Of a DNA stretch of 64,000 bases, positions 18,136-57,051 are shown piece by piece (positions within the stretch are counted from its first letter, which is position 1; each line of letters opens with the position of its first letter). Below the pieces are notes generated by a model. The model searched no databases and was not told the DNA's origin. It worked only from the letters and a program-made list of their open reading frames with translations. The position numbers and the translations under genes were made by a program. The stretch is from Octopus vulgaris (taxonomy: Eukaryota), in NCBI GenBank assembly GCA_951406725.2, contig OX597831.1, positions 62,310,001 to 62,374,000 of the forward strand, given 5' to 3'.

Positions 18136-18900
18136 AGATGGATAGATAGATAGATACATACATAGATAGATAGATACATACATACATACATACATAATAC
18201 ATACATACATACATACATACATACATAAATACATATATACATGCGTGCGATTATATATTGTTTGCGTACATGCTTGAAAATATTAATGACTCACATGCAA
18301 TTGATGAAGATATTGTTAGCGTGTGTTGTACTCGTATTACTAATACATTTTTGAAATTGCTATTGCTATGTTTTTGCATAAAAACGATTTGTTCAGTGAT
18401 ATGTTGGTAAAACTAAACGAAGTAACGGACACGAAATTGAAACCATTTATTAGATTAATTTAGTAAAGAAAAAAGGTGAAGGAATATATATTCCCTCGTT
18501 ATCTGGTACTGATCCAAATCGAACACAACGACAATGGTAATAGTCATGATTATATGCGGGATCATATAATTTCTTTGAATGGAAATGCCACTTGAGTTTT
18601 TTGCAGTCTTTTAATCAGCTAAGTGCATCATGTAACTGCATGAGTCTGTCATTGATGTATTGAAGCTAATTAAGAGGAGCAAACCATTTAAGAAGAGAAA
18701 TGCGTGTCATCATTAGAAAATTGCTTCCTAAGCAACATTTTGACATTCCGATTTGTGGTCATGGGTATATATCAATGAAATGTAACTGAATTATGATATG
18801 TGGAACATCATGAAACTGTTAAGCTACGTGAGTTACACATCACACTTTTTGAAGCACTTGCAAGTATATGTACATATGTACATAAATATATATACACACA

Positions 18901-19812
<912 letters not shown>

Positions 19813-27182: not shown

Positions 27183-27378
27183 ATTTATTTTATAGAAGGA
27201 GCTTCTACAGGACTAGAACTGTTTCATTCAGAAGAAATCATCAGGAAGCTTCCTGATGATTTCTTCTGAATGTAAAAAGTTCTAGTCCTGTAGAAGCTCC
27301 TTCTATAAAATAAATTAATTTAATCTGCTATGTATTGAGTACCTTATTTACTGTGGTTAACCCGGACTCAACCCAGGA

Positions 27379-27380
<2 letters not shown>
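27183..27380. mobile_element. Solo PLE pseudo-LTR fragment of the same family as the intact element, as a fold-back with two opposed HHR copies
   Basis: Near-perfect palindrome 27183-27315 centred on ggaagcttcc. The right arm continues to 27380, matching the reverse complement of ~34696-34770. Embedded in (TA)n. Confidence 0.85.
27200..27250 (-). ncRNA. Minimal type I hammerhead ribozyme (intact copy of the palindrome)
   Basis: agcttc-CTGATGA-tttc ttct gaat-GAAA-cag ttctagtc ctg-TA-gaagct. The + strand copy (27247-27298) has GAAACAG mutated to GTAAAAAG. Confidence 0.82.
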
Positions 27381-27434
<54 letters not shown>

Positions 27435-27435
<1 letters not shown>

Positions 27436-27637
27436 GTGACCGCGTGTGTACCGTTGGCGAATGTTTTCCTCCGTCTTCCCTTCTTTGGATCTTTCCTTTT
27501 CCTATGTTTCTGAAGAAGAGCTCCGCTCGAAACGTTAAACCCCCCTTCTTCCCTTCCTTCCTGAGCGTCCAATAATACTATATTTCTTCCACGTCCTCGC
27601 GTTGTTGTGTTTTCTCTTTCTGTTTTCATGTTTGGAT

Positions 27638-27642
<5 letters not shown>
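27435..27642 (+). mobile_element. ~200-bp (TA)n-embedded repeat with HHR-like motif (27503-27575)
   Basis: tgttt-CTGAAGA-a-gagc tcc gctc-GAAA-cgtt...agcg-TC-caata. Homologous to 18950-19152 (-) and 55706-55900 (+). Confidence 0.7.
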
Positions 27643-27719
<77 letters not shown>

Positions 27720-27726
<7 letters not shown>

Positions 27727-29335: not shown

Positions 29336-29379
<44 letters not shown>

Positions 29380-29380
<1 letters not shown>

Positions 29381-29767
29381 TATATAGAAGGAGCTTCTAC
29401 AGGACTAGTACTGTTTCATTCAAGAGAAATCTTCAGGAAGCTATTTAACAAGAATTGTATTAGCATTTATACATTTAGGCAGGTTTAAAGGAGTGGTGGT
29501 GGGGGACTTTTTGGGGGTAGGCATAGCGCAAAATATCATACTTGGGGGAGTGGTCAAGGAGTCAGTGGTAAGTTAGATGAAAGAATAGATAAATAAAAAA
29601 ATATAAAAATAAAAAAATTAAAAATATATATAAAAAATATATATATAAAAATATATATATAAAAAAAGGGGGGATAGAGTTATAGGTAAATAAGGAGATT
29701 CTCACTTATACCTATACACACATGTATACGTATCTACACACACATATATATATACACATATATATAT

Positions 29768-29818
<51 letters not shown>

Positions 29819-30262
29819 CACACATACATACATATCTACATACACACATACATACACCCGCCCACATATACAAATTTATACACATGCACATGCCTATACC
29901 TGTCTACACATACACACACGTATATATGCATACACTCACTCCCATGCATGCACGCATACACACATGTATATATATATATATACCCACGACCACACATACA
30001 TATATACACATAAAAATATATATTCATACGCACATACACTCATGCACACACAACACACCTAGTTCCCTATATACACATATTTACACCTATATATACATAC
30101 ACCCACATACACCTATGTACATATATATATATATATATATATACATATACACGCATACATATATATACATGTGTGCACATACATACATACACACATATAT
30201 ACATACACATACACATACACATGTGTACCTATACATACCTACACATACACACATACATACAT

Positions 30263-30297
<35 letters not shown>

Positions 30298-30914
30298 CCA
30301 ATACAGGCCCATTCCCTAATTTTAATTTTATTATCTTCATTTATTACTTTTGTTATCTTTGATCGCTAGAGCTAAGAATCCTGGCAATGGCTGCATGTCC
30401 ATTTGTTTGTCTACTAGAAGGCAAGTACTCATTCCCGCACGCACACTCATTAGCACGTACATTCACCCATTCGTACACTCATACACATACACGTACGCAC
30501 GCGTTATATTCATACATACAAACATCTACATACGTTCACGTATATACACATACGTACTCGTACCTACAGATTCGTGTCTACACTTTAGGAGGCTAGTCTA
30601 TACATATACACCAATAAATATACATATATATATATGTACACACATATACATACACACACACATATATACTCCTACATACAGATACATACCTATATATATA
30701 TATATATATATAAATACATATATATATACATACATACACACATACACACATACATATACACATACATACATACACATATATATACATACACAAACATATA
30801 TACACACATATATATATACATACACACATACACACATACATACGTATACATACATACATACATCCATACATCCATACTTACATGCATTTATACGCATACA
30901 CACACCCATCTATA

Positions 30915-30951
<37 letters not shown>

Positions 30952-31231
30952 TCACACATACATATACAAATCTACGCACACACATACATACATACACGTA
31001 TACACATACACGCACATACACATATACATGCGTACCCATACACGTGCACACACGCACGCGCATCCATATATATACACACACACACATATATATACACGTG
31101 TGCAAGCATACATACATACTCATACGCGCACACATACTTACATATACATATATGCACACACTTACACACATATATATACATACACATATACATGCATACA
31201 TACATATATGCATACATACACACACGCACTC

Positions 31232-31240
<9 letters not shown>
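29380..31240. repeat. Left arm of ~1.86-kb inverted repeat (3' end of PLE)
   Basis: Reverse complement of 34871-36735, including unique islands (the same ORF-track peptides [12 protein letters not shown]... and [12 protein letters not shown]... occur on both strands). Confidence 0.95.
29392..29442 (-). ncRNA. Minimal type I hammerhead ribozyme (PLE 3' pseudo-LTR)
   Basis: Minus strand reads agcttc-CTGAAGA-tttc tctt gaat-GAAA-cag tactagtc ctg-TA-gaagct. Core is intact, stem I is 6 bp, and loop 3 contains the palindrome ACTAGT. Confidence 0.88.
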
Positions 31241-31292
<52 letters not shown>

Positions 31293-31331
31293 CACATACA
31301 TACACATACACATACATACACATATATACAC

Positions 31332-31366
<35 letters not shown>

Positions 31367-31568
31367 TACATATATACACATATACATACATATACATACA
31401 CACACACATACATATATACATATACACTGATACACATACCCATACATATATATATATATATACACACACACATATACACATGCATATACTTATATCACTA
31501 CATACTCACATATATAAACATATATACATATACACACATACATATATACATGTACATACACATACGTA

Positions 31569-31602
<34 letters not shown>

Positions 31603-32224
31603 CATATATATATATATATATATATACATACACACACACACACATACATATACACATATACATATATACATATCTATATAAATGATACACATATATACAC
31701 ATACACACACACATATATATATACATTCATGCATATACATATACAAGTATACATACACATACATACACACACACGCGCACACATACATATACACACACAC
31801 ATATACAAATACATACATACACACATACACACACACATATATATATATATACATACATGTACACATATACATATATATATATATCAACAAGGGAGGGTAA
31901 AGTTAATTAGTTATTAGTCAATTTCATCAAGTGTTCAGTATGTAAAGGGACCATTATTATTTTGAGTAAACAATGTTAGAGGGAAAAAAATTCTCTAAGT
32001 AGTGGAAGAGGCTTAAAACTTTATTGGCTGCTATTTCTAGAAAGTTTAGTATGTGGCAACGTAATTTATTTTATTTTACTAAGCCCTAATTATATAATAT
32101 TTTATTTTATACATACATACACATACATAAGCACATACATTTACACATACATATGCATATACATATATACACATATACATACAAACACATATACACATAT
32201 ACACACACACACACACATACAAGC

Positions 32225-32265
<41 letters not shown>

Positions 32266-32505
32266 AATATATGTACATATATATTTTTTTACATGCATAC
32301 ATACACACACACACACATAATACATGCGTATATTCCTACTGTACCCATGCATTTCTATACATATATACATACATACGATACACATATACAAGCGTGCACA
32401 TATAATATGTGAAAGGTCTTAGGAGAAAAGGTAATCGGGGGTGCTAGGGGAACATTGGGGTTGGGGGGGTTGTAGGGGGGGGGTTGTAGGGGGGGGGGGT
32501 TGTCA

Positions 32506-34647
32506 TCAATCAGGTTGCCGGGTAGGTCTATAGTTCTTGTAGTTCGCATACTTCTTATGCATGCAATTTGGGGAGTGTTCTGAAAATTTGTTAAGGAGAG
32601 GGCCTTTGGCGAACAAGATCTCTAGGCTCTCTGATATGCATAGGTCACAGCAGGTATGTCCTCCTGTGTACGAGCGCGCCTTCTGTAGTAGTTTCCACTT
32701 GGTCTTGAAGGGGATTGAGTTCCTTTTAAGGTACCAGATGTGGGCGGCGAGGGTAGTTTGGTTGGATTTATCCTGTCGCCGGAACGAGTGTGTATGTGCG
32801 TACCAGCGGGTCTTAAAGCTGTTTGACGTCATTCCAATGTAGGATTTACTTTTATCGTCAAGGCCTGATCTTACCTCGCATTTATATACTAGGTCCCTCT
32901 GTAGGCAGTTGTTGTTGAGGGGGCAGGTGGTTTTATCATGGCAGTTGCAGTTGCTATCGGACGTTGGATGGGCCCCGGAGAAAGTAGATATGTTAAGTTT
33001 TTTCACATTGTTGTTGGCTAGGTTCCTGGCTAGGTTGGGCGTGGTAGAGTAGGAGAGTCTAATAGTGTTCTTATTTAGGATAGTGTAGTACTTATGTTGG
33101 GTGGGGAAGTGTTTCTGTAGGAGAGTGAAAAAGATCTTAGCTACAGGTGTAGCGACCTCACGGTTGAAGGGGGAGTTGTACCAGCTAATGTGTCTTCGTC
33201 TATTTTTCCTGGGTTGGCGTGGGGCTATACTAGTGTAGGTAATCTTATCTTTAAAACCACTGCGGGCCAGGGCCTCGTTGTAATAGGGGGCTGCGGCCTT
33301 AAAGATATCTTCCGTGGCGGACAGGCTAGAGATTCTAATTGAGACACTTTTTACTAGGTTATCTAATATATTTCTGGGGTGGTTGGAATTGATATCTATA
33401 TATCTAAGGGATTCATTTGGTTTGTGGTACGGGTAATAAAGTGAGGTTTTTAAGTCGAGGGTGACATCTAGGAAGTTAGCCTTTGTTAAGTTGGATTCTA
33501 GGGTAATCCTAAGGCCTAAGTTTTTAAAGAAGGTGTGAAGATTTTTCCGGAACCCATCCGTGGTCCTGGGGTTTATATTGTGGAGGGCGAAAAGGCCGTC
33601 ATCTCGGTAAAGACCACCGGAGAGGCCTGTGAATAGGGTTTTCAGCCTATGGAGGATGAAAAGGCCCACTAGGTCACTTATTTCAGCAGAGTCGTTAGCA
33701 CCCATGCTGACGTCGAAGGGGGTCACAGATTTTTTGTTGATCCAGTGGGATCCGTCATAGAAAAGAAAAGTCTTACGTGCGTGGAGGATCACATCTTGCT
33801 CGGCCTCGGTGATGGTGGAGGACCTCCTGGCGAAGTTAATCGCATTGATCAGCAAGCTCTCCGATATAGAGGCGTAGTAATCCTCGATATCCAGTTGTAG
33901 GAATCGGGTGTTGCTTTTATTTGGTAAATCCCGGAACCAAGTTATTGCCTCGGAGGTCCTATTCCAGAGTGGAAGGGGTGAAGCTTCACGCATTTTTGGT
34001 AAAATCCTGTCCAGGATCTTCTTGCTGACGGATCCGATGTCAGACTTGGTTGGGTTAATCAAACGGACCGACGGTTTATTTTCGAAATGGTCTTTGTGGT
34101 CTTTCAGGGTGAAGTGTGGGGACTTCACCCTCAGGGGTTCTGTTCGGTCGTCGATTTTAAGGGAGGTGGCAATCTCTTTCCCGGCCAAGTTGGTTTCAGT
34201 TAGCGCTGCGTCGTCTACTTTCTTGTATTTAGCTGTGATGGCGTTATCGGCTAGTCTATTATAGGTATCCGGAGTCACCGCGTAAATATTTTTTGTCTTG
34301 TCCGAAGGGACATGGAGGTTCTGGGAGCTTTTCATTTTCGAAAGCTTCGCATTCAGTTCCGTTTGGAAAGGTAAGTTGACTCTCCTGAATTTGATGTTTT
34401 TTATCATGAGGAAGAGGTCTTCTTCAAACGGTTCAAGTAGGCTGTTGGTAGGAGGGGCCTTATTTGATTTGAAGCCGTACTTATCATTACTGGTAGATGC
34501 TACATCAGGGTTGTCGAAGAAGAAAGATCTCCATCGAATTCTTTTGATGAACTCATCAGTCCGTCTAATGAGGGCTTTTTGGTACTGTTTCCTTGGTGGG
34601 ATAGTAATGTTCTTCAGGGAAGTGTCGAGGTCGATTCTTGTCAGCAT
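32506..34647 (-). CDS. Penelope-like element ORF: reverse transcriptase + C-terminal GIY-YIG endonuclease (probably Hydra-clade PLE), 713 aa, uninterrupted
   Basis: RT motifs LQLDIEDYYASI, FDVSMGANDSAEISDLVG, GLYRDDGL and ANFLDVTL. Linker CNCHDKTTCPL (CxCx5C). GIY-YIG LVYKCEV...SYIGMT...FKTRWYAH with CDLC and LLNK. No stops or frameshifts. Confidence 0.95.
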   Translation of the reverse strand: MLTRIDLDTSLKNITIPPRKQYQKALIRRTDEFIKRIRWRSFFFDNPDVASTSNDKYGFKSNKAPPTNSLLEPFEEDLFLMIKNIKFRRVNLPFQTELNAKLSKMKSSQNLHVPSDKTKNIYAVTPDTYNRLADNAITAKYKKVDDAALTETNLAGKEIATSLKIDDRTEPLRVKSPHFTLKDHKDHFENKPSVRLINPTKSDIGSVSKKILDRILPKMREASPLPLWNRTSEAITWFRDLPNKSNTRFLQLDIEDYYASISESLLINAINFARRSSTITEAEQDVILHARKTFLFYDGSHWINKKSVTPFDVSMGANDSAEISDLVGLFILHRLKTLFTGLSGGLYRDDGLFALHNINPRTTDGFRKNLHTFFKNLGLRITLESNLTKANFLDVTLDLKTSLYYPYHKPNESLRYIDINSNHPRNILDNLVKSVSIRISSLSATEDIFKAAAPYYNEALARSGFKDKITYTSIAPRQPRKNRRRHISWYNSPFNREVATPVAKIFFTLLQKHFPTQHKYYTILNKNTIRLSYSTTPNLARNLANNNVKKLNISTFSGAHPTSDSNCNCHDKTTCPLNNNCLQRDLVYKCEVRSGLDDKSKSYIGMTSNSFKTRWYAHTHSFRRQDKSNQTTLAAHIWYLKRNSIPFKTKWKLLQKARSYTGGHTCCDLCISESLEILFAKGPLLNKFSEHSPNCMHKKYANYKNYRPTRQPD

Positions 34648-34778
34648 TTTTCTTGGTGATGGTTATAAGGGCACTAGGGTGTGCTAAGATATGTAGGTCC
34701 CGGGTTGATTCGGGGTTAACCACAGTAAGTAAGGTACTCAATACATAGCAGAGTAAAATTAATTTATTATATAGAAGG

Positions 34779-34829
34779 AGCTTCTACAGGACTAGTACTG
34801 TTTCATTCAAGAGAAATCTTCAGGAAGCT
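34779..34829 (-). ncRNA. Minimal type I hammerhead ribozyme (PLE 5' pseudo-LTR)
   Basis: Identical to the 29392-29442 motif, ~130 nt upstream of the ORF ATG in sense orientation. Confidence 0.88.
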
Positions 34830-34870
34830 ATTTAACAAGAATTGTATCAGCATTTATACATTTATACATT

Positions 34871-35376
34871 TATATATATGAGTGCGTGTGTGTATGTATG
34901 CATATATGTATGTATGCATGTATATGTGTATGTATATATATGTGTGTAAGTGTGTGCATATATGTATATGTAAGTATGTGTGCGCGTATGAGTATGTATG
35001 TATGCTTGCACACGTGTATATATATGTGTGTGTGTGTATATATATGGATGCGCGTGCGTGTGTGCACGTGTATGGGTACGCATGTATATGTGTATGTGCG
35101 TGTATGTGTATACGTGTATGTATGTATGTGTGTGCGTAGATTTGTATATGTATGTGTGAGTGTGTATATATATATATATATATATATACATATATATAGA
35201 TGGGTGTGTGTGTATGCGTATAAATGCATGTAAGTATGGATGTATGGATGTATGTATGTATGTATACGTATGTATGTGTGTATGTGTGTATGTATATATA
35301 TATGTGTGTATATATGTTTGTGTATGTATATATATGTGTATGTATGTGTGTGTATATGTATGTGTGTATGTGTATG

Positions 35377-35434
<58 letters not shown>

Positions 35435-35823
35435 TATGTATCTGTATGTAGGAGTATATATGTGTGTGTGTATGTATATGTGTATATATATATATATGTA
35501 TATTTATTGGTGTATATGTATAGACTAGCCTCCTAAAGTGTAGACACGAATCTGTAGGTACGAGTACGTATGTGTATATACGTGAACGTATGTAGATGTT
35601 TGTATGTATGAATATAACGCGTGCGTACGTGTATGTGTATGAGTGTACGAATGGGTGAATGTACGTGCTAATGAGTGTGCGTGCGGGAATGAGTACTTGC
35701 CTTCTAGTAGACAGACAAATGGACATGCAGCCATTGCCAGGATTCTTAGCTCTAGCGATCAAAGATAACAAAAGTAATAAATGAAGATAATAAAATTAAA
35801 ATTAGGGAATGGGCCTGTATTGG

Positions 35824-35858
<35 letters not shown>

Positions 35859-35971
35859 ATGTATGTATGTGTGTATGTGTAGGTATGTATAGGTACACAT
35901 GTGTATGTGTATGTGTATGTATATATGTGTGTATGTATGTATGTGCACACATGTATATATATGTATGCGTG

Positions 35972-36002
<31 letters not shown>

Positions 36003-36304
36003 GTACATAGGTGTATGTGGGTGTATGTATATATAGGTGTAAATATGTGTATATAGGGAACTAGGTGTGTTGTGTGTGCATGAGTGTATGTGCGTATGAA
36101 TATATATTTTTATGTGTATATATGTATGTGTGGTCGTGGGTATATATATATATATACATGTGTGTATGCGTGCATGCATGGGAGTGAGTGTATGCATATA
36201 TACGTGTGTGTATGTGTAGACAGGTATAGGCATGTGCATGTGTATAAATTTGTATATGTGGGCGGGTGTATGTATGTGTGTATGTAGATATGTATGTATG
36301 TGTG

Positions 36305-36359
<55 letters not shown>

Positions 36360-36735
36360 GTGTATATATATATGTGTGTGTAGATACGTATACATGTGTG
36401 TATAGGTATAAGTGAGAATCTCCTTATTTACCTATAACTCTATCCCCCCTTTTTTTATATATATATTTTTATATATATTTTTTATATATATTTTTAATTT
36501 TTTTATTTTTTTATTTTTTTATTTATCTATTCTTTCATCTAACTTACCACTGACTCCCTGACCACTCCCCCAAGTATGATATTTTGCGCTATGCCTACCC
36601 CCAAAAAGTCCCCCACCACCACTCCTTTAAACCTGCCTAAATGTATAAATGCTAATACAATTCTTGTTAAATAGCTTCCTGAAGATTTCTCTTGAATGAA
36701 ACAGTACTAGTCCTGTAGAAGCTCCTTCTATATAA
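34871..36735. repeat. Right arm of ~1.86-kb inverted repeat (inverted PLE 3' copy)
   Basis: Matches 29380-31240 in reverse complement with only a few substitutions and (TA)n length changes. Confidence 0.95.
36673..36723 (+). ncRNA. Minimal type I hammerhead ribozyme (inverted PLE arm)
   Basis: agcttc-CTGAAGA-tttctcttgaat-GAAA-cagtactagtcctg-TA-gaagct read directly on the + strand. Confidence 0.88.
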
Positions 36736-36812
36736 GGAGGGTCAGGGTGAGGGTAGAAGCAAACAGACACACAGAAACACGCACAGACAAACTGCCGTTT
36801 ATATATAGAGAG

Positions 36813-38012: not shown

Positions 38013-40130
38013 CCTACACAAATGTATTTTTGTTTTCTGTACCTTTGAACTATATATGTATATACGCACACATGTATGCCAAAACCTGGAGTCATGTAAT
38101 ACAAGCAAATTACACTCAAGTACATTCAATTCACATAGTAATGTAAATATATTTTTATTCTTTCCGTTGTTCCATTGCAGCAATCAATCCAAGTGTCGCG
38201 TCATTTTGTCGCTCGCCATCCCATCATTCATATATCATATCTCCTAGCTATATCTTTAATATCATGGAAACGCAACATAATATACAGCGTCAGAATATGA
38301 GGTCTTCTTTTTTCGTCCTCCTTCAGACTGTTTTTTCTATTTAGCTTAAATACATAAATCTCTAAGTTGTGAAAATATATACCATTGGCACAAAATTAAG
38401 CAAAATATATGCATTTCTGTATAAGTGATCATGGTGCGTCACCTGCCTTCTTCGCTGGTTTATGATTATCATATATATGTAGATTAAGTAGTGTTGAGTA
38501 AATGTATACTGAAATATCTAGAGTATTTGAATCTGATGAACGTCTGTAATTCCTTACTGCGAATAGGATCTAATTCAAGTGACAGCATTTATCGAAAATC
38601 TCAAATTTGTCACTCTTTTATCAATCAGAATTTTGGGTGAAAATAGTATAAAAACCTTCAAGTGATTTCACAATATACATGCTATATTTCCGTTGGTATC
38701 CATTTTTAGATAATTTGAAAAGTGACTTCGTAGATACCGTGTGCATTATGGATTTTAACATAGTTAAATAACATACCAAAATCCCTGTGCTCAGTTAGTG
38801 ATGAAAGAAGTGCGACTGTAGTAAACATATATATATTTAACTTCAACATCTCGATATTCTGGTATTTGTTTCTAACAGAAAATCAAGAGTGTATATTGTA
38901 TTATCTCTATTTACAGATGCATTTATTTATAAACGCAACGGTAGAAACAATCTTGACTAGACTTTCGAAACCATCAGTCGATACATGCATCATTTCAGAA
39001 ACATTCTTTGATTGATAAACGTGTAAATGTGGAATATCAAAACGTTATTCAGCTATGTATAGAAATTCAAATATTGCGGAATTTACTCAGATAAGAACTG
39101 AGACATTATCGAACGACAAAAGCAATATATGCACGTAAGAAATGATCTTGCTTCTTAGGCATTTCATGGGGAAATTCATAATAATAAACCTAATAGAAAG
39201 TGGAGAACCATTAAAATTCCAAATCCAACTATTTAAATAACTGGAGTCGATTATAAAACTGTTCTTTTATCATTTTCAACAAACATAAAATCTAATAAAA
39301 TGGATGAAACATATCAAAATAAAAAGCGATTATTAATATGTCAGTTACTTTTAAAGTTTTCAGATTTTGAGAGATATCCAGAGTTGACAAAACTCAGTGT
39401 GATGTAGAACCTAAGTAATCAACTCATGTAAGACACCTAACACTATGCTAAAAGCATTAGGAACCATATCAGTATACTGGAATATGTTTGATGATAAGAT
39501 GATGTTAGTAAAACGAACCAGTGCACTTATTCGCCAAACCTAATCTCTTTCAGACTATACAACTTTATATGAATGGGTGGTTGCGTATCTGAATGTGAGT
39601 GTGTGTTTTCAAAGGTCTGTCACGTGTCTACAGGTTTAAAAGAAGGTGTTTTTTTTAAACCGAAAATGCAATTAGACACTTCACCTACACGAAAAGGGGA
39701 ACGGAATCGACTCCATTTATATGAACAGTACACGGGATCGATACTATTGTCGTGATACGCATTTCTATGCAATGGGACTATAAGATCACTGGAATAAAGA
39801 GATTCGCTCAAGACCACACAATTTCAGGTGATCAAAAGACAAATACACTAATCCCTAGTTTACCTCACTTCACATACACAGGTTTACCCATAACAAACAT
39901 AAACATAATGTTGCTGATACACACGCACATAAACACACAAACATATTTATATGTTGTAGAAATATATACATGCATACATGAGTATACACAAGCACAAACG
40001 TTGCACATATACATATATATTATAATTTCAAAATAGGATAAAATCTTCATAAGAATTTGTCAAGTAGTTAGCGTGAGAAACTTCATAAGAGGAAAATACA
40101 TCATTTTTTTCTTTTAAATTTATTTATTTA

Positions 40131-40505
40131 TATTATATAGAGGGCACTATTACACATAGATGCCTCACGCTAGGAGTGACACTTAAAGTCAAAACTACTA
40201 AAATAAGCAAACACGTTGTACCGAAACAATTCTCGAAGCAAGTCATCTATAAACAGAAGTTAGTCACATATCACACTGTGTTTATTCATTATATATCTTG
40301 AATTATGCACACACTGAAGAGTAAAGAGCGAATATTATTGCACTGACTACGAAATCACAGTGTGATATGTGGTTAAATTCTGTTTTGAGATGGCTTGCTT
40401 CGAGAATTGTTTCGGTACAACGTGTTTACTTATTTTAGTAGTTTTGACTTTAAGAGTCCCTCCTAGCGTGAGGTATTTATATGTAATAGTGCCCTCGATA
40501 TAATA
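40131..40505. mobile_element. Fold-back element (~150-bp inverted arms 40131-40283 / 40352-40505) containing a hammerhead, PLE pseudo-LTR-like
   Basis: Arms are reverse complements with scattered mismatches, and the left arm stops inside the HHR sequence. Confidence 0.8.
40310..40371 (+). ncRNA. Type I hammerhead ribozyme
   Basis: caca-CTGAAGA-gta[24-nt loop]tac-GAAA-tcac agt gtga-TA-tgtg. Confidence 0.75.
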
Positions 40506-40594
40506 CACATATATATTATATATATACACATATACATACATATATGTTATACACATATACATTATGTATTCGTATATATATACATTATGTATTC

Positions 40595-44163: not shown

Positions 44164-44538
44164 GCGTCCCCAAAGTCCATCCCCTCCTCACCGTAGTGGG
44201 GACGCTGGCAACGGGTAGTGTCAGAGCTATGCTGTCGGGATCTTCGGTTCTTGGTAAGGCCACCCAAGGCGGATTGGTCTGACACCGAGTAGTATTAGGC
44301 CCACAACCCGGCAGACGGGGCTCTGGTGAAAATCCTCGGAGTGTCTGTTTCGGCAACCGGCGGCTCCTCGGTCGTTCTGTCCCTGTGTCTGCTGACAATC
44401 TGCGGCAAACAGGATGTCTCCACATGCGGGATTGTTGGGGACCGCTTGTGAAATTCATATTCCCACGAAACATCTTCGATGAGTAGAAGAATCCGACTCA
44501 ACCCGCCCAGGGTGAATATCGCCACAAGTACAAATAAG
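44164..44538 (+). mobile_element. GC-rich short retroposon (RTE-derived-like), copy 1
   Basis: Perfect 14-bp TSD tatttaaaagagtt (44150-44163 / 44539-44552). The 3' tail is made of ACAAGT-like repeats, and there are no Pol III A/B boxes. Confidence 0.85.
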
Positions 44539-45896
44539 TATTTAAAAGAGTTATGGATTAAACTGGATACCACTCTAGCAGTTACAGGAAGGTATTCAAC
44601 AGATAGACCAAGAAATCTGTGTATTCCACATCTAATTTGCTGATAATTTAGCTATTGTTAACATTAAGAAATTAAACACTATAAGGAATTACGAATCTAC
44701 TTGTACTATTTCAGGCAGAAAAATACCAATGTAGGTCAGCTATAGATAATATATCTGATGTAATTATTTATGATGATGAGAGCAATACAATGTCTCCTCA
44801 TAATAATAACATTAGTAGAAATAAAATAAAGTAAATACCTTATGATAGTCAAACATATGTAACTGTGCAGCGTTGGAAGAATAATTTGCTTTATAAATGC
44901 TCGGTTCAAACATTAGGAACTACAGCCTTCAAAGTAAAAAATCACATAACATAACAGTGTTAATTACAAAAGAAAAGTCCCCGGTGCTTGCCTTGATTGG
45001 TTCATTTAGGGAGTAAAAGAAGAAAAAATATTAACTATCCAATTTTACTGCCAATTATACTTAGAGACTCTGTTAAAATTTGTTTCACTCATCAGTAGCG
45101 GTATTTAAAATCTTCAAATGTAGGTGAAATAGTTATTATTCCGTTGTTCTCTCATCTTAAATAGAATACTCTTAAAATTTCCACATGACCATTTAACACA
45201 ACTAACTTATATCGATTTAACTAATATTACTGATAGTGTTCTTACCTATAAATCCTCCCACCACCACTTGACTTATCTCAGCTAGTAACCCATTTCTTAA
45301 CTAACGTATCTCATTTAATACTTGCCTATTGTATCTATTTTACGTTCAGTGTAATTTAATTGCAGCGAATACAGTATTATGTTGGATTGATTACTCAGTC
45401 GGAATATATTCTGAGCTTTCATTCTAATGGAAACTTCCATATTTTTTCTTCATTCAATTTAGTTCTATCAACTCTTTATTATATACTACTACGATAATCT
45501 TTCTTTTATAATATTCCTCTTTTATTGGCACTTCTGACAGTATCATACAAAACAGAAATTCCTTAACAATTTTACTATATCCCGTAAATTTCTTTTTCCT
45601 CGCCACTGCACTTCAGTCAAAATTAACAAACGCTTAACCTCTCAGTCAAAAAGGGAATGATGGTTATGTATTTAGATCAAAGAAAATATTCTGATACATA
45701 CCTCATCGTCATTGTTCATTGACTGAAACATCTCCTGTATTGGGTAGACACCGGCTGCGTAATATATATTTGTCATATATTCTATGGAATAAATTTCGTT
45801 TTTGGATTTGGTTTGCAAGACTCTTTATGAGTTCGTGCGTTGAAGCATATTCTGTTGTGTCTGGGGAGAGTAATTTTCGTTTTGTGCCTTATTTTT

Positions 45897-46006
45897 TAAC
45901 ACACTCACCGGTAAAATTTCCACTTTTTTTCTTATTTTTATTTTCCTAAAATTTTGGGAAAATAAAAATAAGAAAAAAAGTGGAAATTTTACCAGTGAAT
46001 GTGTTA
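45897..46006. repeat. ~110-bp near-perfect palindrome
   Basis: taacacactcaccggtaaaatttccac...cctaaaattttggg...gtggaaattttaccagtgaatgtgtta. Confidence 0.9.
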
Positions 46007-46469
46007 TATTATCAGGCACAAAAAAAAATGACTCCCCAGACGTGACAGACTATGGAATAAAATCTTTCACTATATTTGTTAAATTTTCTGAAAATGTACA
46101 CAAGTAAATTTAAGTGGTCGAATAAGATGGCTGCAATTAACTTCCTTAATTCATGAAAGTGATGAAATTCATACAGTTTCCGATTTTGTTCACTAAACAT
46201 TCTCTTTGCCAGTTTCTTTTGCATGGCATGCTTAGCGGGCAATTACCGCAGACATTTACTTCCGCACCGTTGAATTATTGTGCACCAGAAAGACTATGAT
46301 GTATATGGGTAAAGGGAGAGCAAATCTTGTTTTTCTTTCTTTTCTTTCTGTTTTATAAACTATTTGTCTTCTCGAACTACTTTTTGCATCAACGCTTTTT
46401 TGTTTACCTTATTTTTGAATGTGCAAGCGTCCTGGTTTTCAAATAGGACAAAACATGTGCTCTGAGCCT

Positions 46470-47275
46470 GAAATTTTTTTGATCTTCGTCTACCCTTATT
46501 TTGAGGGGACGGAATGTTTCGCCTTTGTATAACCTACTACAGCTGCATGGGATGGAATACACGCAGTTTTTGGTCGTTTTCACTTCTATTGGTAGTTTTA
46601 CTCAAAGGACATATTTGCTAAGTGAATACTGTCCTGATGTCATATGGGCTGCATATCTCTTGTATCTTTTCAGAGAGGCCTTCCAGTTTGGGTAGACAGA
46701 CTTTGGACAGTTTATCGGTTTCATCTCATCTTTTCTTCATAATATGAGTAGATAGCATGCTTTTGGGGTATTTAGTGCGCTTAATAGATTGTTTAAGCTT
46801 GATCATTATTAAGTGTGTATCACGATTGCTACTTATATTATATGCATGATGTTTTAGGCACTGATCAATCCCTTTCTTTACACTGTGTGGATGGTGGGAA
46901 TTGAAGTTTAGGTATCGTCTAGTGAAGGTCGGCTTGCGGTATACGGATACCCTGTATCCATACTTGGTGCATGTTATTAATACGCTCATGAATGCTAGCT
47001 GATTGTCTCCTTCTTTTTCCATTGTGAACTGTATGGATGGATTTATTGAATTCACATGATCTAACAGCACTTTGACAGACATCTTCTCGGAGAGGACAGA
47101 GTATGAAGTTTTTATCAACATAGCTCAACCATAGGGTTGGTTTTAGTGGTGTTGATCCCGAAGAGAAATTCGCAAAGTATCCCATGTATATATTGGCTAT
47201 TATCAGTGATAATGGCGAACCCATTGCTAAACCCTCTTCTTGTCGATATATATCAGGAAGGTATATCAGTCGAAA
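46470..47275 (-). pseudogene. Degraded Penelope/Poseidon-type PLE (RT, thumb, GIY-YIG)
   Basis: YRQEEGLAMGSPLSLIIANIYM, NSINPSIQFTMEKE, VYRKPTFT.RYLNFNSHHP and NCVYSIPCSCSRLYKGET, with frameshifts and stops. Confidence 0.88.
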
Positions 47276-48016
47276 CGTTAACAACAAACAAGATGAGGAC
47301 AAATATCCATCAAATGTAAGTCATGTACATAATTACTCATCTCTTAAATATAGAACTGTAATATATATATCTGTGTGTGTGTGTGTGTGTGAAAGGAAAA
47401 AATGGAGGAATTTATATATGGAAACATTAATTATTTGAAACAATTGCAATTTCAGACAATATCAAAGTCATAGTACTTACGCTCGTTTCCATGCTAAAGT
47501 TAATAATAAAAAAAAATTCGAGACTGATAATGAATATAGCTGAACGTTAATGCTGACATCTCTTTAAGAGGTATTTATATCCTCGAAATAATTCATATAT
47601 ATATACATATACAAATACACTCGCACATTCACACGCACACACATATGTATGTAGGCATGTATATACATATATATATGTTGATTTGTTCTTCTGTCTCAGG
47701 ACACAATTTGTTTTGTCATAGTCAATAATGAATCTAATGTGCTTTGCTATTTATATACTCTGGAGTATTGGCGCATGTGAAGTATGAAAACAATAGAAAT
47801 ACCTAGAACACAAATACAATCAATTTGCTTCGCAAGAGCGCTTACAAATCGGATAACACCATTAAAGTTTTAACGTAAAATATTACCTACGGAAATTAGT
47901 TGCTATACTAATTACGTGGCTAAATATTTAGTTGTTATATAGAAAAAAATATTTTGTTCAAAGCAAATACAGAGAACATTCGACCAGGTTGATATGATTT
48001 AGAATTAGATCGTGGA

Positions 48017-49916: not shown

Positions 49917-50315
49917 GCGTCCCCAAAGTCCATCCCCTCCTCACCGTAGTGGAGACGCTGGCAACGGGTAGTGTCAGAGCTATGCCGTCCGGAACTTCGG
50001 TTCCTGGTAGGGCCACCGTAGGCGGATTGCTCTGACACCGAGTGGTATTAGGGCCACAACCCGGCAGACGGGGCTCTGGTGAAAATCCTCGGAGTGTCTG
50101 TTTCGGCAACCGGCGGCTCCTCGGTCAATCTGTCCCTGCGTCTGCGGACAATTTGCGGAAAACAGGATGTCTCTACATGCGGGATTGTTGGGGACCGCTT
50201 GTGAAATTCATATTCCCACGAAACCTCTTCCAGTGCCATGGTTCGAGATGCCTCGAGGGTTGTAGAAGAAACCGACTCAACCCGCTCAGGGTGAATGTCG
50301 CCACAAGTACAAGTA
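49917..50315 (+). mobile_element. GC-rich short retroposon, copy 2
   Basis: Colinear with 44164-44538, same 5' start gcgtcccc, ~24-bp extra segment near the 3' end, and an acaagtacaagta tail. Confidence 0.85.
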
Positions 50316-50819
50316 ATGACATAGAAATTAAAGAACTGAAAAACACATACATAGTAAACACATATCTCACACCAATAATAAATGATAAATTATAAGCTTA
50401 TAGCTACAGTATGAATACACCCACACTCTCACTCACACGCGCACAGAGTTACTCACATTTTTGTACAAACCACTCTACTTGATGTTCAGTGTTCCATATT
50501 TAATTGAGATATCCACATGCTTTTATGCATCGTTTTTATCAAAAAGTTCCGAGACGATTTCTTTGGATGGCTATGTAGGTAAACTTCATCGTATATTTGA
50601 CTAGATCATTAATAATAGACATATTTATAAACATAGAACAAGATTAGTCGCCATGAAAACTTTGAAACAATTGTCGACTGGCACATAAAAATACTATTAC
50701 AAAATCTCCAATTTTAAGATTTTCTTATTTATATTTCTATAAACATGTATGTGAGTGTGTGCGTTTATGTATATATAGTTATATATGTATTCATTTGTAT
50801 ACATGTATATATATTTATA

Positions 50820-54705: not shown

Positions 54706-55150
54706 GGCATCGAAAAAAAATGCTATGGAAATACCATTAAAGCAAAGGGAAATTACTGTGTGATTGATCGTTATTACGACAAAAGTGCTATTAGAATGAC
54801 CGCTAAGTAAGGGGAGGGTGTAAAATTAAGGGAGTATAGATGATCATATTAATCGGGTAAGCACGCATGTTCATACATATACATGCGCTCGCACACCCAG
54901 GTGCATGCGCCTATATGTATATACTCATCCACACTTTCTTGAAACACACACATGCTCACCCACACATAAGCCAAAAAATATAGACATACCCGCATACACG
55001 CTCGCACACAAACAGAAACATGTGTGAAAAATGACATAACTTAAAAATCAGTTTCAGCTCAACTACTAATCTTAAAAATATAATCGCACACAACACGCAA
55101 AAACCACAATATGAATAGATAAAAATTTGTGCCCGTAAAATGGAGCTTGC

Positions 55151-55591
55151 ATGTCCGAGACCATCATTTATGAAGCCACCGTCGACTCTATATCCACTAA
55201 GGACCCGATTTCGACGAAGAAATACGTAGGCCTTACAGAGGGTAATTTCAAGGCCAGGTTCAACAATCTCACCTTGTGCTTCAGGCACTGGGATAAAAGG
55301 AAAACGGTCAAATTATCCAGTCATATATGGTCCTTAAAAGATAAAAGCTACATGGTCCATTGGAAGAACTTAGCCAAGTGTAAGCCCTACACCAATGGCA
55401 GTGGAAAGTGCGATCTTTGTGATATGGAAAGATGGCTTATCTGGAAAAGCAGCTTAGACCCCACCACATGTCTGAATTCAAGAAATGAACTTTTCGGATC
55501 ATGTCGTTATGTGGCTAAATATTTATTATGTTTCTCCCCACCACCCAAATTCCGAGCCTTATACGTAGAGAATACAAGAAAATTACCATAG
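55151..55591 (+). pseudogene. 5'-truncated PLE: GIY-YIG endonuclease fragment of the same clade as the intact element but a different family
   Basis: IIYEATV...KYVGLTEGNFKARF...LSSHIWSLK...KPYTNGSGKCDLC...LNSRNE aligns by eye with the C-terminus of the 713-aa ORF. Confidence 0.85.
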
Positions 55592-55705
55592 GATTTGAAA
55601 ATGGAGAAAAGTTCTACAATTTTTATTTCGAAATATTATTCAAACTTAATTTTTCTGAAATTTATTTGCAAACATTTCGATATCCATAAATATATATAAC
55701 TACAA

Positions 55706-55900
55706 GTGAATCATTGGCAACTTTTTTCCTCCGTATTCCTTTTCTATTCGACTATCTTCTGTTTCCTGTTTCTGAAGAAGAGCTTTGCTCGAAACGTAAA
55801 ACCATCTTTCTTTCTTTCCATGAGCGCATCCACGCGTTGTTGTTCTTACCACATCCACGCGTTGTTGTTTTTATTTTGTGTTTGTTCTTCGTTTTTTGGG
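55706..55900 (+). mobile_element. HHR-like short repeat directly downstream of the GIY-YIG fragment (possible 3' pseudo-LTR)
   Basis: CTGAAGA-a-gagc ttt gctc-GAAA at 55772-55794. Homologous to 27435-27642, with the cleavage triplet apparently lost. Confidence 0.6.
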
Positions 55901-56288: not shown

Positions 56289-56703
56289 TGTCAGGATATG
56301 GAATATGTATGCAATGTATTATAATTTCTATTGTTTTGACATTTATGCATGGAGTTGAAATATATTTTCTGACATAATTTAATTCGTTCAGTTCTTATAG
56401 TCTCTATCTCTCTCAACTATATATATTTCAACATTCTCTATAGAATATTTGACAATGGTAACAGGGTTTGAAATGTCAAAACTGTTGCAGCATCAATTCA
56501 AAGATTGTAAATATATCTATTTCCGCTTCATCTCCTTGAAGTACGCTAAATTTTTTTTTTTCCGAAATGAAATACTCCATAAAATTCAACTGGTAATATT
56601 TAGTGCGAAAGTATTATCCTTTTGAATTATAAATTATTATGAATTACGATTTAAAAGCAGCTCTAGTAAGTGTAAACGTTATCGATCGCACAATAGGTAG
56701 GGC

Positions 56704-56795
56704 GCATTCCTCGGACGCTATCTCAACAGCAAATTTAACGAATGAATAAGTATTAATTCGTTAAATTTGCTGTTGGGATAGCGTCCGAGGAATGC
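56704..56795. repeat. 40-bp-stem hairpin with 12-nt loop
   Basis: gcattcctcggacgctatctcaacagcaaatttaacgaat / attcgttaaatttgctgttgggatagcgtccgaggaatgc, with one G-U on the + strand. Confidence 0.9.
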
Positions 56796-57051
56796 TACCT
56801 ACTTGATGCCGAGTGTTAAACACACTTGAATGTCACAGACCAAGCGGGGCGATTTGCCTCGGAGTCACCATTAATGAAATACACCGATATTTCGACATTA
56901 TTGTGGCTTATCAGATCCATGTACATGGATTATATCGAAAAGAGATCAACTTGCTGAAGTGCTGTGGTGTAGTCTTCAGAGCTGCCCGCGGACGCTAACC
57001 TGCAGCATATTTTGTGCATAAACAAAACACATGCACTATGTTTACATTACA

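Follow-up and report, generated by a model that had tools for sequence, protein, structure and literature searches.

A probable intact Hydra-clade Penelope-like element with an inverted arm and a microsatellite spacer in Octopus vulgaris

The window, a 64-kb stretch of Octopus vulgaris DNA, very probably holds a Penelope-like retrotransposon (PLE) of the Hydra clade in intact form, likely inserted fairly recently via TPRT into a run of (TA)n and carrying an inverted arm that is likely a second cDNA of the same event. The ORF, motifs, repeats and junctions of the element can be read directly from the DNA. Its layout, a partial tandem with direct pseudo-LTRs (pLTRs) and an adjoining inverted 5'-truncated copy, equals the published PLE scheme. 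The mirror-image ends and the predicted self-cutting RNA motifs are usual for the class, and only the 3-kb tail region, filled with microsatellite, is uncommon. The element would represent a new family within a clade already known (Craig 2021, PMC8557442); the supplement of that paper, or a repeat library of O. vulgaris, may already contain the family.

The protein and its clade

An uninterrupted ORF (P0001; 32506-34647, minus strand) follows a 5' UTR of 114 nt (34648-34761, minus strand) and encodes 713 aa from its ATG. Its translation contains neither stop nor frameshift, so the RT+GIY-YIG frame described in the earlier note is indeed intact. The RT core and thumb (33220-34320, minus strand; about aa 110-476), recognized from invariant columns and fold matches, include DKT at 116-118, D253 and YRDD at 347-350. 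A CxCx5C linker (32923-32949, minus strand; C567, C569, C575) leads to the GIY-YIG endonuclease (32557-32898, minus strand; aa 584-697), with Y588, Y603, G605, R614, H618, E673 and N686 and the motifs CxxC (667-670) and CxH (695-697). All ten of the predicted catalytic positions that were checked are intact. Pfam matched neither RT nor GIY-YIG in P0001 (GIY-YIG was matched in 1 of 25 alignment members), and a sequence search of the PDB returned nothing meaningful. The AlphaFold model (pLDDT 87.5) finds telomerase RTs (TERT) as its top match in both fold searches, Foldseek and VIA (in VIA, Z 15.4, rmsd 4.2, 282 residues aligned), and at aa 584-689 it matches the catalytic domain of I-TevI (Z 9.6, rmsd 2.4, 89 of 92 aligned), a C-terminal position for the endonuclease.

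The Hydra clade is defined by RWK, DKT, a CxCx5C linker, and CxxC and CxH around a conserved E and N (PMC8557442); its members also lack an insertion-in-fingers domain. P0001 carries every Hydra motif checked (RW[K/R], DKT, CxCx5C, CxxC and CxH) and lacks CCHH. RWR stands at aa 38-40, near the N-terminus, DKG is replaced by DKT, C667 and C670 precede E673, C695 and H697 follow N686, and the GIY-YIG core has a single Cys (590). These motifs occur in 114-117 of 117 aligned homologues. The earlier note had linked CxCx5C and CxxC to the Hydra clade, and that reading holds for the motifs at 567-575 and 667-670. The translation has no cysteine upstream of residue 567 and no N-terminal endonuclease or CxC domain of the Naiad/Chlamys kind, nor does P0001 display the traits of Naiad, Neptune, Nematis or Penelope-Poseidon (an endonuclease CCHH, DKG or DKA and, for Naiad, an N-terminal endonuclease). 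Families in Craig 2021 such as Hydra-2_Amil, Hydra-1_Obim and Penelope-13_HM share with the element a single ORF with RT and C-terminal GIY-YIG, the same motifs without CCHH, a canonical hammerhead in the pLTR and a 3' end in (TA)n.

A link to a published family runs through P0051: compared by eye over the 400 residues shown, it and Hydra-2_Amil differ at about 15 (about 96% alike). P0001 is 41% identical to it over 703 aa, with 3% gaps, a distance that makes the element a family separate from Hydra-2_Amil. In a FastTree phylogeny of 63 proteins, drawn without other PLE clades or an outgroup, P0001 nests in the radiation that holds P0051 and forms with P0003 and P0021 a sublineage with 98% support.

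Across 116 homologues, 123 columns reach 95% conservation or more, and P0001 departs at 13 of them; for the homologues themselves the median is 1 and the maximum 6. Perhaps, then, the copy is young and yet dead, its frame intact and its product inactivated by changes such as P259A, K304N, P492S and K674S. At 5 of the 13 columns, that of K674S in the endonuclease among them, P0003 (the closest relative) has either the consensus residue or none. P0003 nonetheless departs at 7 of the same 13, at 5 of them with the identical residue, within a well-supported sublineage. Also, the catalytic residues are in place and near-identical ORF words are present in other samples, and a dead copy seems unlikely.

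Terminal repeats, hammerhead motifs and inverted arms

The unit is bounded by two direct pLTRs of 103 nt that differ at one position (99%), as the earlier note had it with its direct repeat of about 100 bp at each end. The 3' pLTR (29375-29477, minus strand) includes a 5-nt tail that merges into (TA)n; the 5' pLTR (34762-34864, minus strand) is the upstream tandem copy, cut to 103 nt. Their spacing of 5,387 bp gives a 5.4-kb unit. Hydra families are generally below 3 kb, a tendency rather than a defining trait, and range from 1.1 to 3.0 kb in the table of Craig 2021; a microsatellite spacer of 3.0 kb accounts for the greater size here.

Three identical type I hammerhead motifs of 51 nt, the number given in the earlier note, lie in the 3' pLTR (29392-29442, minus strand), in the 5' pLTR (34779-34829, minus strand) and in the right arm (36673-36723, plus strand). 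The earlier note spoke of minimal hammerheads in PLEs, a term that does not fit here: the motifs are canonical, with a full core and all three stems. In the first, stem I has 6 bp, stem II 3 bp with a U-U at its base, and stem III 4 bp with a near-palindromic loop. The form CUGANGAU...UGAA is common in the Hydra table of Craig 2021, and the sequence is unlike the one listed there for Hydra-1_oBim. Rfam found no match at gathering level across the window, and by E-value around the 5' pLTR it gave seven weak matches with no hammerhead among them, so the call depends on the motif scan. With stricter settings that scan picked up 9 sites in the window against 0 in 30 shuffles, and with looser ones 7 sites against 2 in 10 shuffles. 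The folding z-score, at -0.17, is unremarkable. Stem III is predicted at -15.2 kcal/mol as a self-duplex versus -1.4 as a hairpin, and the cofolded dimer at -29.4 versus -8.5 per monomer. By these predictions the hammerheads would cut the tandem RNA, probably pairing into dimers by way of their near-palindromic stem III; in motif 3 the cut is predicted to fall after the GUA at 36715-36717. For an Anolis element, hammerhead cleavage is dispensable for insertion in vitro (PMC11167929).

The last 1.86 kb of the unit (left arm; 29380-31239, minus strand) recurs in inverted, 5'-truncated form as the right arm (34872-36735, plus strand), which stops 5 nt short of the tail. The near-identical extra copy reported in the earlier note is borne out by blastn, which aligned 29380-31259 with 36735-34852 at 97.8% over 1,896 columns. 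The true inner ends fall near 31239 and 34872, so that each arm measures about 1,860 bp and the inner ends lie 3.6 kb apart. Leaving out 2 mismatches and 2 gaps at the inner boundary, the arms differ by 9 substitutions and 8 indels, every indel in a microsatellite tract. About 69% of each arm is microsatellite, and of the 590 remaining bases 3 differ. Long ORFs within the arms were set aside as microsatellite read-throughs. At the inversion junction (34865-34872, minus strand) there is an extra 8-nt unit of the pLTR start, with TA microhomology to a (TA)n run of the spacer.

That the arms are unusually long for a PLE to any meaningful degree, as the earlier note supposed, is not supported. Inverted 5'-truncated copies belong to the normal make-up of PLEs and vary in size (Craig 2021), and the length here follows from that of the spacer. 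Since an arm of 966 bp is already recorded in that paper for a Hydra-clade family, Penelope-13_HM, the 1.86 kb found here is no novelty. Drosophila virilis Penelope (PMC2377424) likewise combines a partial tandem with large inverted terminal repeats of variable size, which is its most frequent structure; it differs in having a Penelope/Poseidon-clade protein, a tail of 34 bp (5 nt here) and a 5' intron.

Such inverted and tandem structures trouble assemblies, according to Craig 2021, and an arm rich in microsatellite might be a fold-back chimera. This is very improbable. An artefact would not readily account for the differences between the arms, three of them outside microsatellites, nor for a mirror that stops at the element's 3' end and gives way to a different flank; the inner ends are far apart and the window contains no N. 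Among the loose contig ends listed, none showed the inner junction.

Insertion site and origin of the arm

The 3' end of the element lies in a run of (TA)n (29340-29374; TRF 29340-29386, period 2), the likely target site. The tail extension of 5 nt (29375-29379) is present at this left end only, with none on the arm; in described PLE families it measures 30-40 bp, also at one end only. The right end lies outside (TA)n: at the right junction (36736-36805), 4 extra bases, able to pair back onto the pLTR end, are followed by a host repeat minus its usual upstream part. The element has no target-site duplication (TSD). Contigs show loose ends before 36740 in 4 of 4 runs, and no piece bridged 36735/36736 among the 32 matches listed from 4 runs, the flank being itself a repeat. 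The same 3' end runs into (TA)n in contigs of runs X1 and X18 and into a 5' UTR tail in those of others (23 in X8, 3 in X13). The idea that the unit landed in a copy of opposite orientation already present at the site was rejected, as the left flank differs from the sequence upstream of the arm.

A miniature head-to-head insertion of a related subfamily (about 90%), absent from the earlier note, lies apart from the main element at 27183-27382. Its two pLTR ends meet at a self-complementary 4-mer (27247-27250), flanked on both sides by (TA)n, and carry one intact hammerhead (a fourth) and one broken (a fifth). Its long tail matches the first 65-70 nt or so of the element's 5' UTR.

How might the element have arrived? 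By analogy with the biochemistry of Anolis Poseidon (PMC11167929), the P0001 protein would bind a tandem transcript and its GIY-YIG domain would nick AT-rich DNA. Reverse transcription may have begun inside the RNA just beyond the pLTR, giving the 5-nt tail, and would then have copied the pLTR, the spacer, the ORF and 103 nt of the upstream tandem copy. The last 1.86 kb was likely made a second time, in the opposite direction, and the product likely joined by TA microhomology within one of the spacer's (TA)n runs. We lean toward this second synthesis being self-primed on the first cDNA or the same template, because the right end, with neither tail nor (TA)n, looks end-joined to a trimmed flank.

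Alternatively, though with less probability, the opposite target strand primed synthesis of the arm on a second RNA, so that two cDNAs converged head to head, and the (TA)n and flank on the right were lost during or after integration. The Anolis protein, a predicted dimer, cleaves and extends both strands (PMC11167929), the substitutions between the arms could reflect template differences, and the miniature insertion has its (TA)n on either side. That insertion was rejected as proof of a second template, as everything in its short arm is also contained in its long one. The same relation holds in the main element, and self-priming would also explain both; the bare right end and the 4 bases that could fold back also speak for self-priming.

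It is quite improbable that the arm is a later event altogether, whether a 5'-truncated family member that inserted independently beside an older copy or a DNA-repair event that duplicated the sequence in inverted orientation. The family's 3' end is highly repeated (a 281-base stretch has 115-2,818 contig records per run, a count that includes the flank repeat), and the right flank is a truncated repeat without TSD, as such an event might leave. Yet the arm sits against the 5' pLTR just where the published layout puts it, it ends at the element's 3' terminus rather than within flank DNA, and all three pLTRs share both the hammerhead sequence and a variant at 36671. When contig depth is summed, roughly half of it or more lacks this variant, which is weak evidence, since depth is no copy number.

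Spacer, age and relatives

The less usual part of the element is the 3' spacer, or UTR, of 3,028 bp (29478-32505, minus strand) that precedes the 3' pLTR on the transcript: 73% of it is alternating purine-pyrimidine (microsatellite), with 13 runs of at least 8 TA units. Adineta vaga Pen1_Av (PMC3846280) also has a long spacer (0.9-1.5 kb) between ORF and 3' pLTR, and TSD-less insertions joined by microhomology, but its spacers are unique, copy-specific and apparently captured host DNA, not mostly microsatellite. The right arm shows that at least 1.86 kb of the spacer was copied jointly with the pLTR once. It is doubtful that an active family passes this spacer on from copy to copy, and with it 13 copies of the family's own (TA)n target. 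If it does, every jump would seed fresh microsatellites and landing sites, the internal (TA)n runs would offer sites for cDNA self-priming and hence for long inverted arms, and a (TA)n-targeting PLE would add to the microsatellite load of its host.

From the differences between its arms, the copy looks young but not brand-new. The earlier note judged it very recent and possibly still active; its youth stands, but both further claims are unproven, with 3 of 590 non-microsatellite arm bases already differing. Among the runs listed, 20 of 24 (7 studies, one organism) contain 60-81% of 258 words sampled from the ORF region, corresponding to about 98.4-99.3% identity if changes are evenly spread. 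No RNA run among those listed contained ORF words.

The element leaves knowledge of PLE structure unchanged, and its importance is modest. Anolis carolinensis Poseidon (PMC11167929) is the only in vitro model of mechanism, with AT-rich nicking, extension of both strands, an internal RT start that gives the tail and a protein-assisted hammerhead; it belongs to another clade, and its ORF begins inside the hammerhead, whereas the ATG of P0001 lies about 130 nt downstream. Our literature search found no functional study of the Hydra clade. Being intact, with both pLTRs present and its junctions resolved, this copy could serve as a candidate for the first in vitro tests of the Hydra RT, of nicking at (TA)n and of the CxCx5C linker. 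How inverted arms are joined can be seen from the two insertions. The clade was described from about two dozen families (Craig 2021). Of 8,000 proteins scored in a homologue search, 1,082 reached E 1e-10 or better, and a cluster search gave 5,388 clusters at E 1e-30 or better; many of the latter are fragments, not every one checked as Hydra. From sequence similarity, these counts suggest a clade far more diverse than published.

Layout and age of the element

The ORF scan and translation yield an ORF of 713 aa on the minus strand (32506-34647), with neither stop nor frameshift. Direct pseudo-LTRs (pLTRs) of 103 nt each lie at 29375-29477 and 34762-34864, spaced 5,387 bp apart. By blastn, the final 1.86 kb of the unit, which constitute the left arm (29380 to about 31239), recur as an inverted copy, the right arm (about 34872-36735), 97.8% identical to the left. 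The uninterrupted ORF, the direct pLTRs, the inverted copy and three hammerhead motifs are all found where the earlier note placed them. This arrangement is the standard layout of Penelope-like elements (PLEs) and already known. The combination of tandem and inverted copies is the commonest form of Penelope in D. virilis, where the inverted repeats are large and variable in size (Schostak 2008, PMC2377424), and Penelope-13_HM, of a Hydra family, has an inverted copy of 966 bp (Craig et al. 2021, PMC8557442). In light of these precedents, the arms fall within the known variable pattern, which does not support the earlier reading that they are unusually long for a PLE.

The less usual part of the element, in contrast to arm length, is the 3' spacer, 3,028 bp from stop codon to 3' pLTR, with 73% purine-pyrimidine alternation (vs 10% in window positions 1-26900) and 13 runs of at least 8 TA units. 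The spacer brings the unit to 5.4 kb, compared to 1.1-3.0 kb in the Hydra table of Craig et al. 2021 (PMC8557442). Pen1_Av also has a long spacer, but one of 0.9-1.5 kb, apparently captured host DNA (Arkhipova 2013, PMC3846280). The microsatellites and SINE-like ends of the window have the look of an octopus genome. In O. vulgaris, 336 recently active Penelope-like insertions span 1.83 Mb (Bonar 2026, PMC13282606), by our division a mean of ~5.4 kb per insertion, so in that case a young PLE this large would be nothing out of the ordinary. Examination of the microsatellite spacer across the whole family is worthwhile.

Global alignment of the arms gives 9 substitutions and 8 indels, not counting another 2 mismatches and 2 gaps that lie right at the inner boundary. 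All indels are within microsatellite tracts, and of the 9 substitutions 3 are among the 590 bases outside microsatellites, a difference of 0.5%. The right arm is unlikely to be a fold-back assembly chimera, since the arms differ outside microsatellites, 3.6 kb separates their inner ends, and the symmetry goes no further than the element's terminus. The same 0.5%, the single difference between pLTRs (1 in 103 nt), and the intact frame point to a young copy, in agreement with the earlier note. If each site is assumed to change at a generic 1-5 per billion per year, the copy would be under roughly 0.5-2.5 million years old, and younger still had the arms been copied from different templates. Words of the ORF region are shared at a level of 60-81%, equivalent to about 98.4-99.3% identity, by 20 of the 24 listed runs (7 studies, one organism; one may be the assembly source).

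Clade assignment and the encoded protein

The Hydra clade is marked by RWK, DKT, a CxCx5C linker, and CxxC and CxH around conserved E and N, and also by canonical hammerheads, insertion at (TA)n, and the absence of CCHH (Craig et al. 2021, PMC8557442). The element's protein, P0001, carries RWR38, DKT116, C567/C569/C575, C667/C670, and C695/H697, with one cysteine inside the GIY-YIG core. These motifs support the assignment to Hydra, which the earlier note suggested from the linker and CxxC. The motifs are also present in 114-117 of 117 homologues (those of 640-760 aa, shorter and longer matches being left out). P0001 is 41% identical over 703 aa to one of them, the stored protein P0051. P0051 stands in for Hydra-2_Amil and, compared by eye, differs from its published sequence at about 15 of 400 shown residues. 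A FastTree tree of 63 proteins groups P0001 with stored homologues P0003 and P0021 (98% SH-like), nested within a radiation containing P0051; having no outgroup, the tree is no test of P0001 against other PLE clades. Hydra-1_Obim was considered and rejected, because its hammerhead sequence is unlike the element's (Craig et al. 2021, PMC8557442) and among 272 stored proteins none exceeds 53% identity to P0001. The element is very probably a new family within the known Hydra clade.

Pfam names no domain in P0001. An AlphaFold model (25-sequence alignment, pLDDT 87.5) finds telomerase RT first in both Foldseek and VIA-align (Z 15.4, rmsd 4.2, 282 aligned), with other RTs scoring within 1 Z of it, and modelled residues 584-689 match the I-TevI GIY-YIG domain (Z 9.6, rmsd 2.4, 89/92). 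Ten predicted catalytic positions are intact. P0001 differs at 13 of 123 highly conserved columns, but the closest relative departs at 7 of these as well, so most of the changes in this putative enzyme look lineage-specific.

Hydra-like proteins are abundant: of 8,000 proteins scored, 1,082 reach E 1e-10 or better, and at a cutoff of E 1e-30 there are 5,388 clusters, many of these being fragments. Pfam recognises hardly any of them, naming GIY-YIG in 1 of 25. A literature search found no functional study of any Hydra element; a bioRxiv paper (10.64898/2026.07.22.740005) deals with non-autonomous derivatives, the retrozymes. The present copy is a fair candidate for experiments.

Junctions and a possible route of insertion

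No target-site duplication is present at the element's ends. The left end extends 5 nt beyond the stopping point of the arm and then meets (TA)n. In contigs of four other sequencing runs, the same 3' end leads into 5' UTR (23 contigs of X8, 3 of X13) or (TA)n (X1, X18). In an Anolis element, an internal RT start creates the PLE tail, and the protein nicks AT-rich DNA and extends both strands, hammerhead cleavage being dispensable (Frangieh 2024, PMC11167929). The left-end tail and the contig ends fit such a start.

At the inner junction, one extra 8-nt unit opens the 5' pLTR, which joins the arm via TA microhomology; the join falls within one of the spacer's (TA)n runs. The right end has neither tail nor (TA)n. 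It carries 4 extra bases able to pair back on the pLTR end and adjoins a host repeat stripped of its usual upstream letters, which appear as loose ends in 4 of 4 runs. We infer one integration event, in which target-primed synthesis would start at the left (TA)n, the last 1.86 kb would then be synthesised a second time, and the right end would be closed through end-joining. The data leave undecided whether the second cDNA was target-primed or self-primed. Self-priming, proposed from palindromes at inverted junctions (Arkhipova 2013, PMC3846280), accounts for the right end a little better.

Hammerheads and neighbouring elements

All three pLTR copies contain an identical 51-nt motif, each a predicted type I hammerhead. 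None of them is reported by Rfam, nor does their folding energy stand out (z -0.17), so the call rests on the core letters and three stems. A stricter motif scan finds 9 type I sites in the window and 0 in 30 shuffles. Stem III is near-palindromic (predicted self-duplex -15.2 vs -1.4 kcal/mol as hairpin). This prediction agrees with the dimeric mode that Cervera and de la Pena (2014, PMC4209133) describe for type I hammerheads of metazoans.

A miniature head-to-head insertion of a subfamily ~90% alike (27183-27382) has two pLTR ends, with one intact and one broken hammerhead. The ends meet at a self-complementary 4-mer, and (TA)n lies on both sides; one side carries a 5-nt tail, the opposite side a stretch of 5' UTR about 65-70 nt long. 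The intact hammerhead differs from that of the main element by 4 changes, all at free core position N7 and loops II/III, a weak sign of constraint. One X1 contig has a similar palindromic junction.

A second Hydra-type family has left remnants at 55082-55883 (a piece of a broken endonuclease, 38% identical to P0001, then a pLTR-like end that includes a hammerhead at +55772), and related ends at 27387-27726 (hammerhead +27510, stem III shrunk to a palindromic 4-mer) and 18867-19202. A frameshifted RT palm/thumb fragment (46726-47320, minus strand) matches the Hydra profile weakly (E 1e-4) and looks like a canonical, non-Hydra PLE. Direct repeats at 44164-44537 and 49917-50316 (94% over 314 bp, 5.75 kb apart) enclose no long ORF among those listed. 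Type I hammerhead-like motifs at +2900, +3608 (followed by (TA)n), and -40897 are probably ends of other PLE families. At 40121-40515, an element of ~400 bp has inverted arms ~82% alike and, close to the middle (+40314), a loose hammerhead-like motif; it is possibly another head-to-head PLE remnant. The short palindromes at 45846-46054 (85% self-complementary) and 56697-56802 (91%) may be MITEs.
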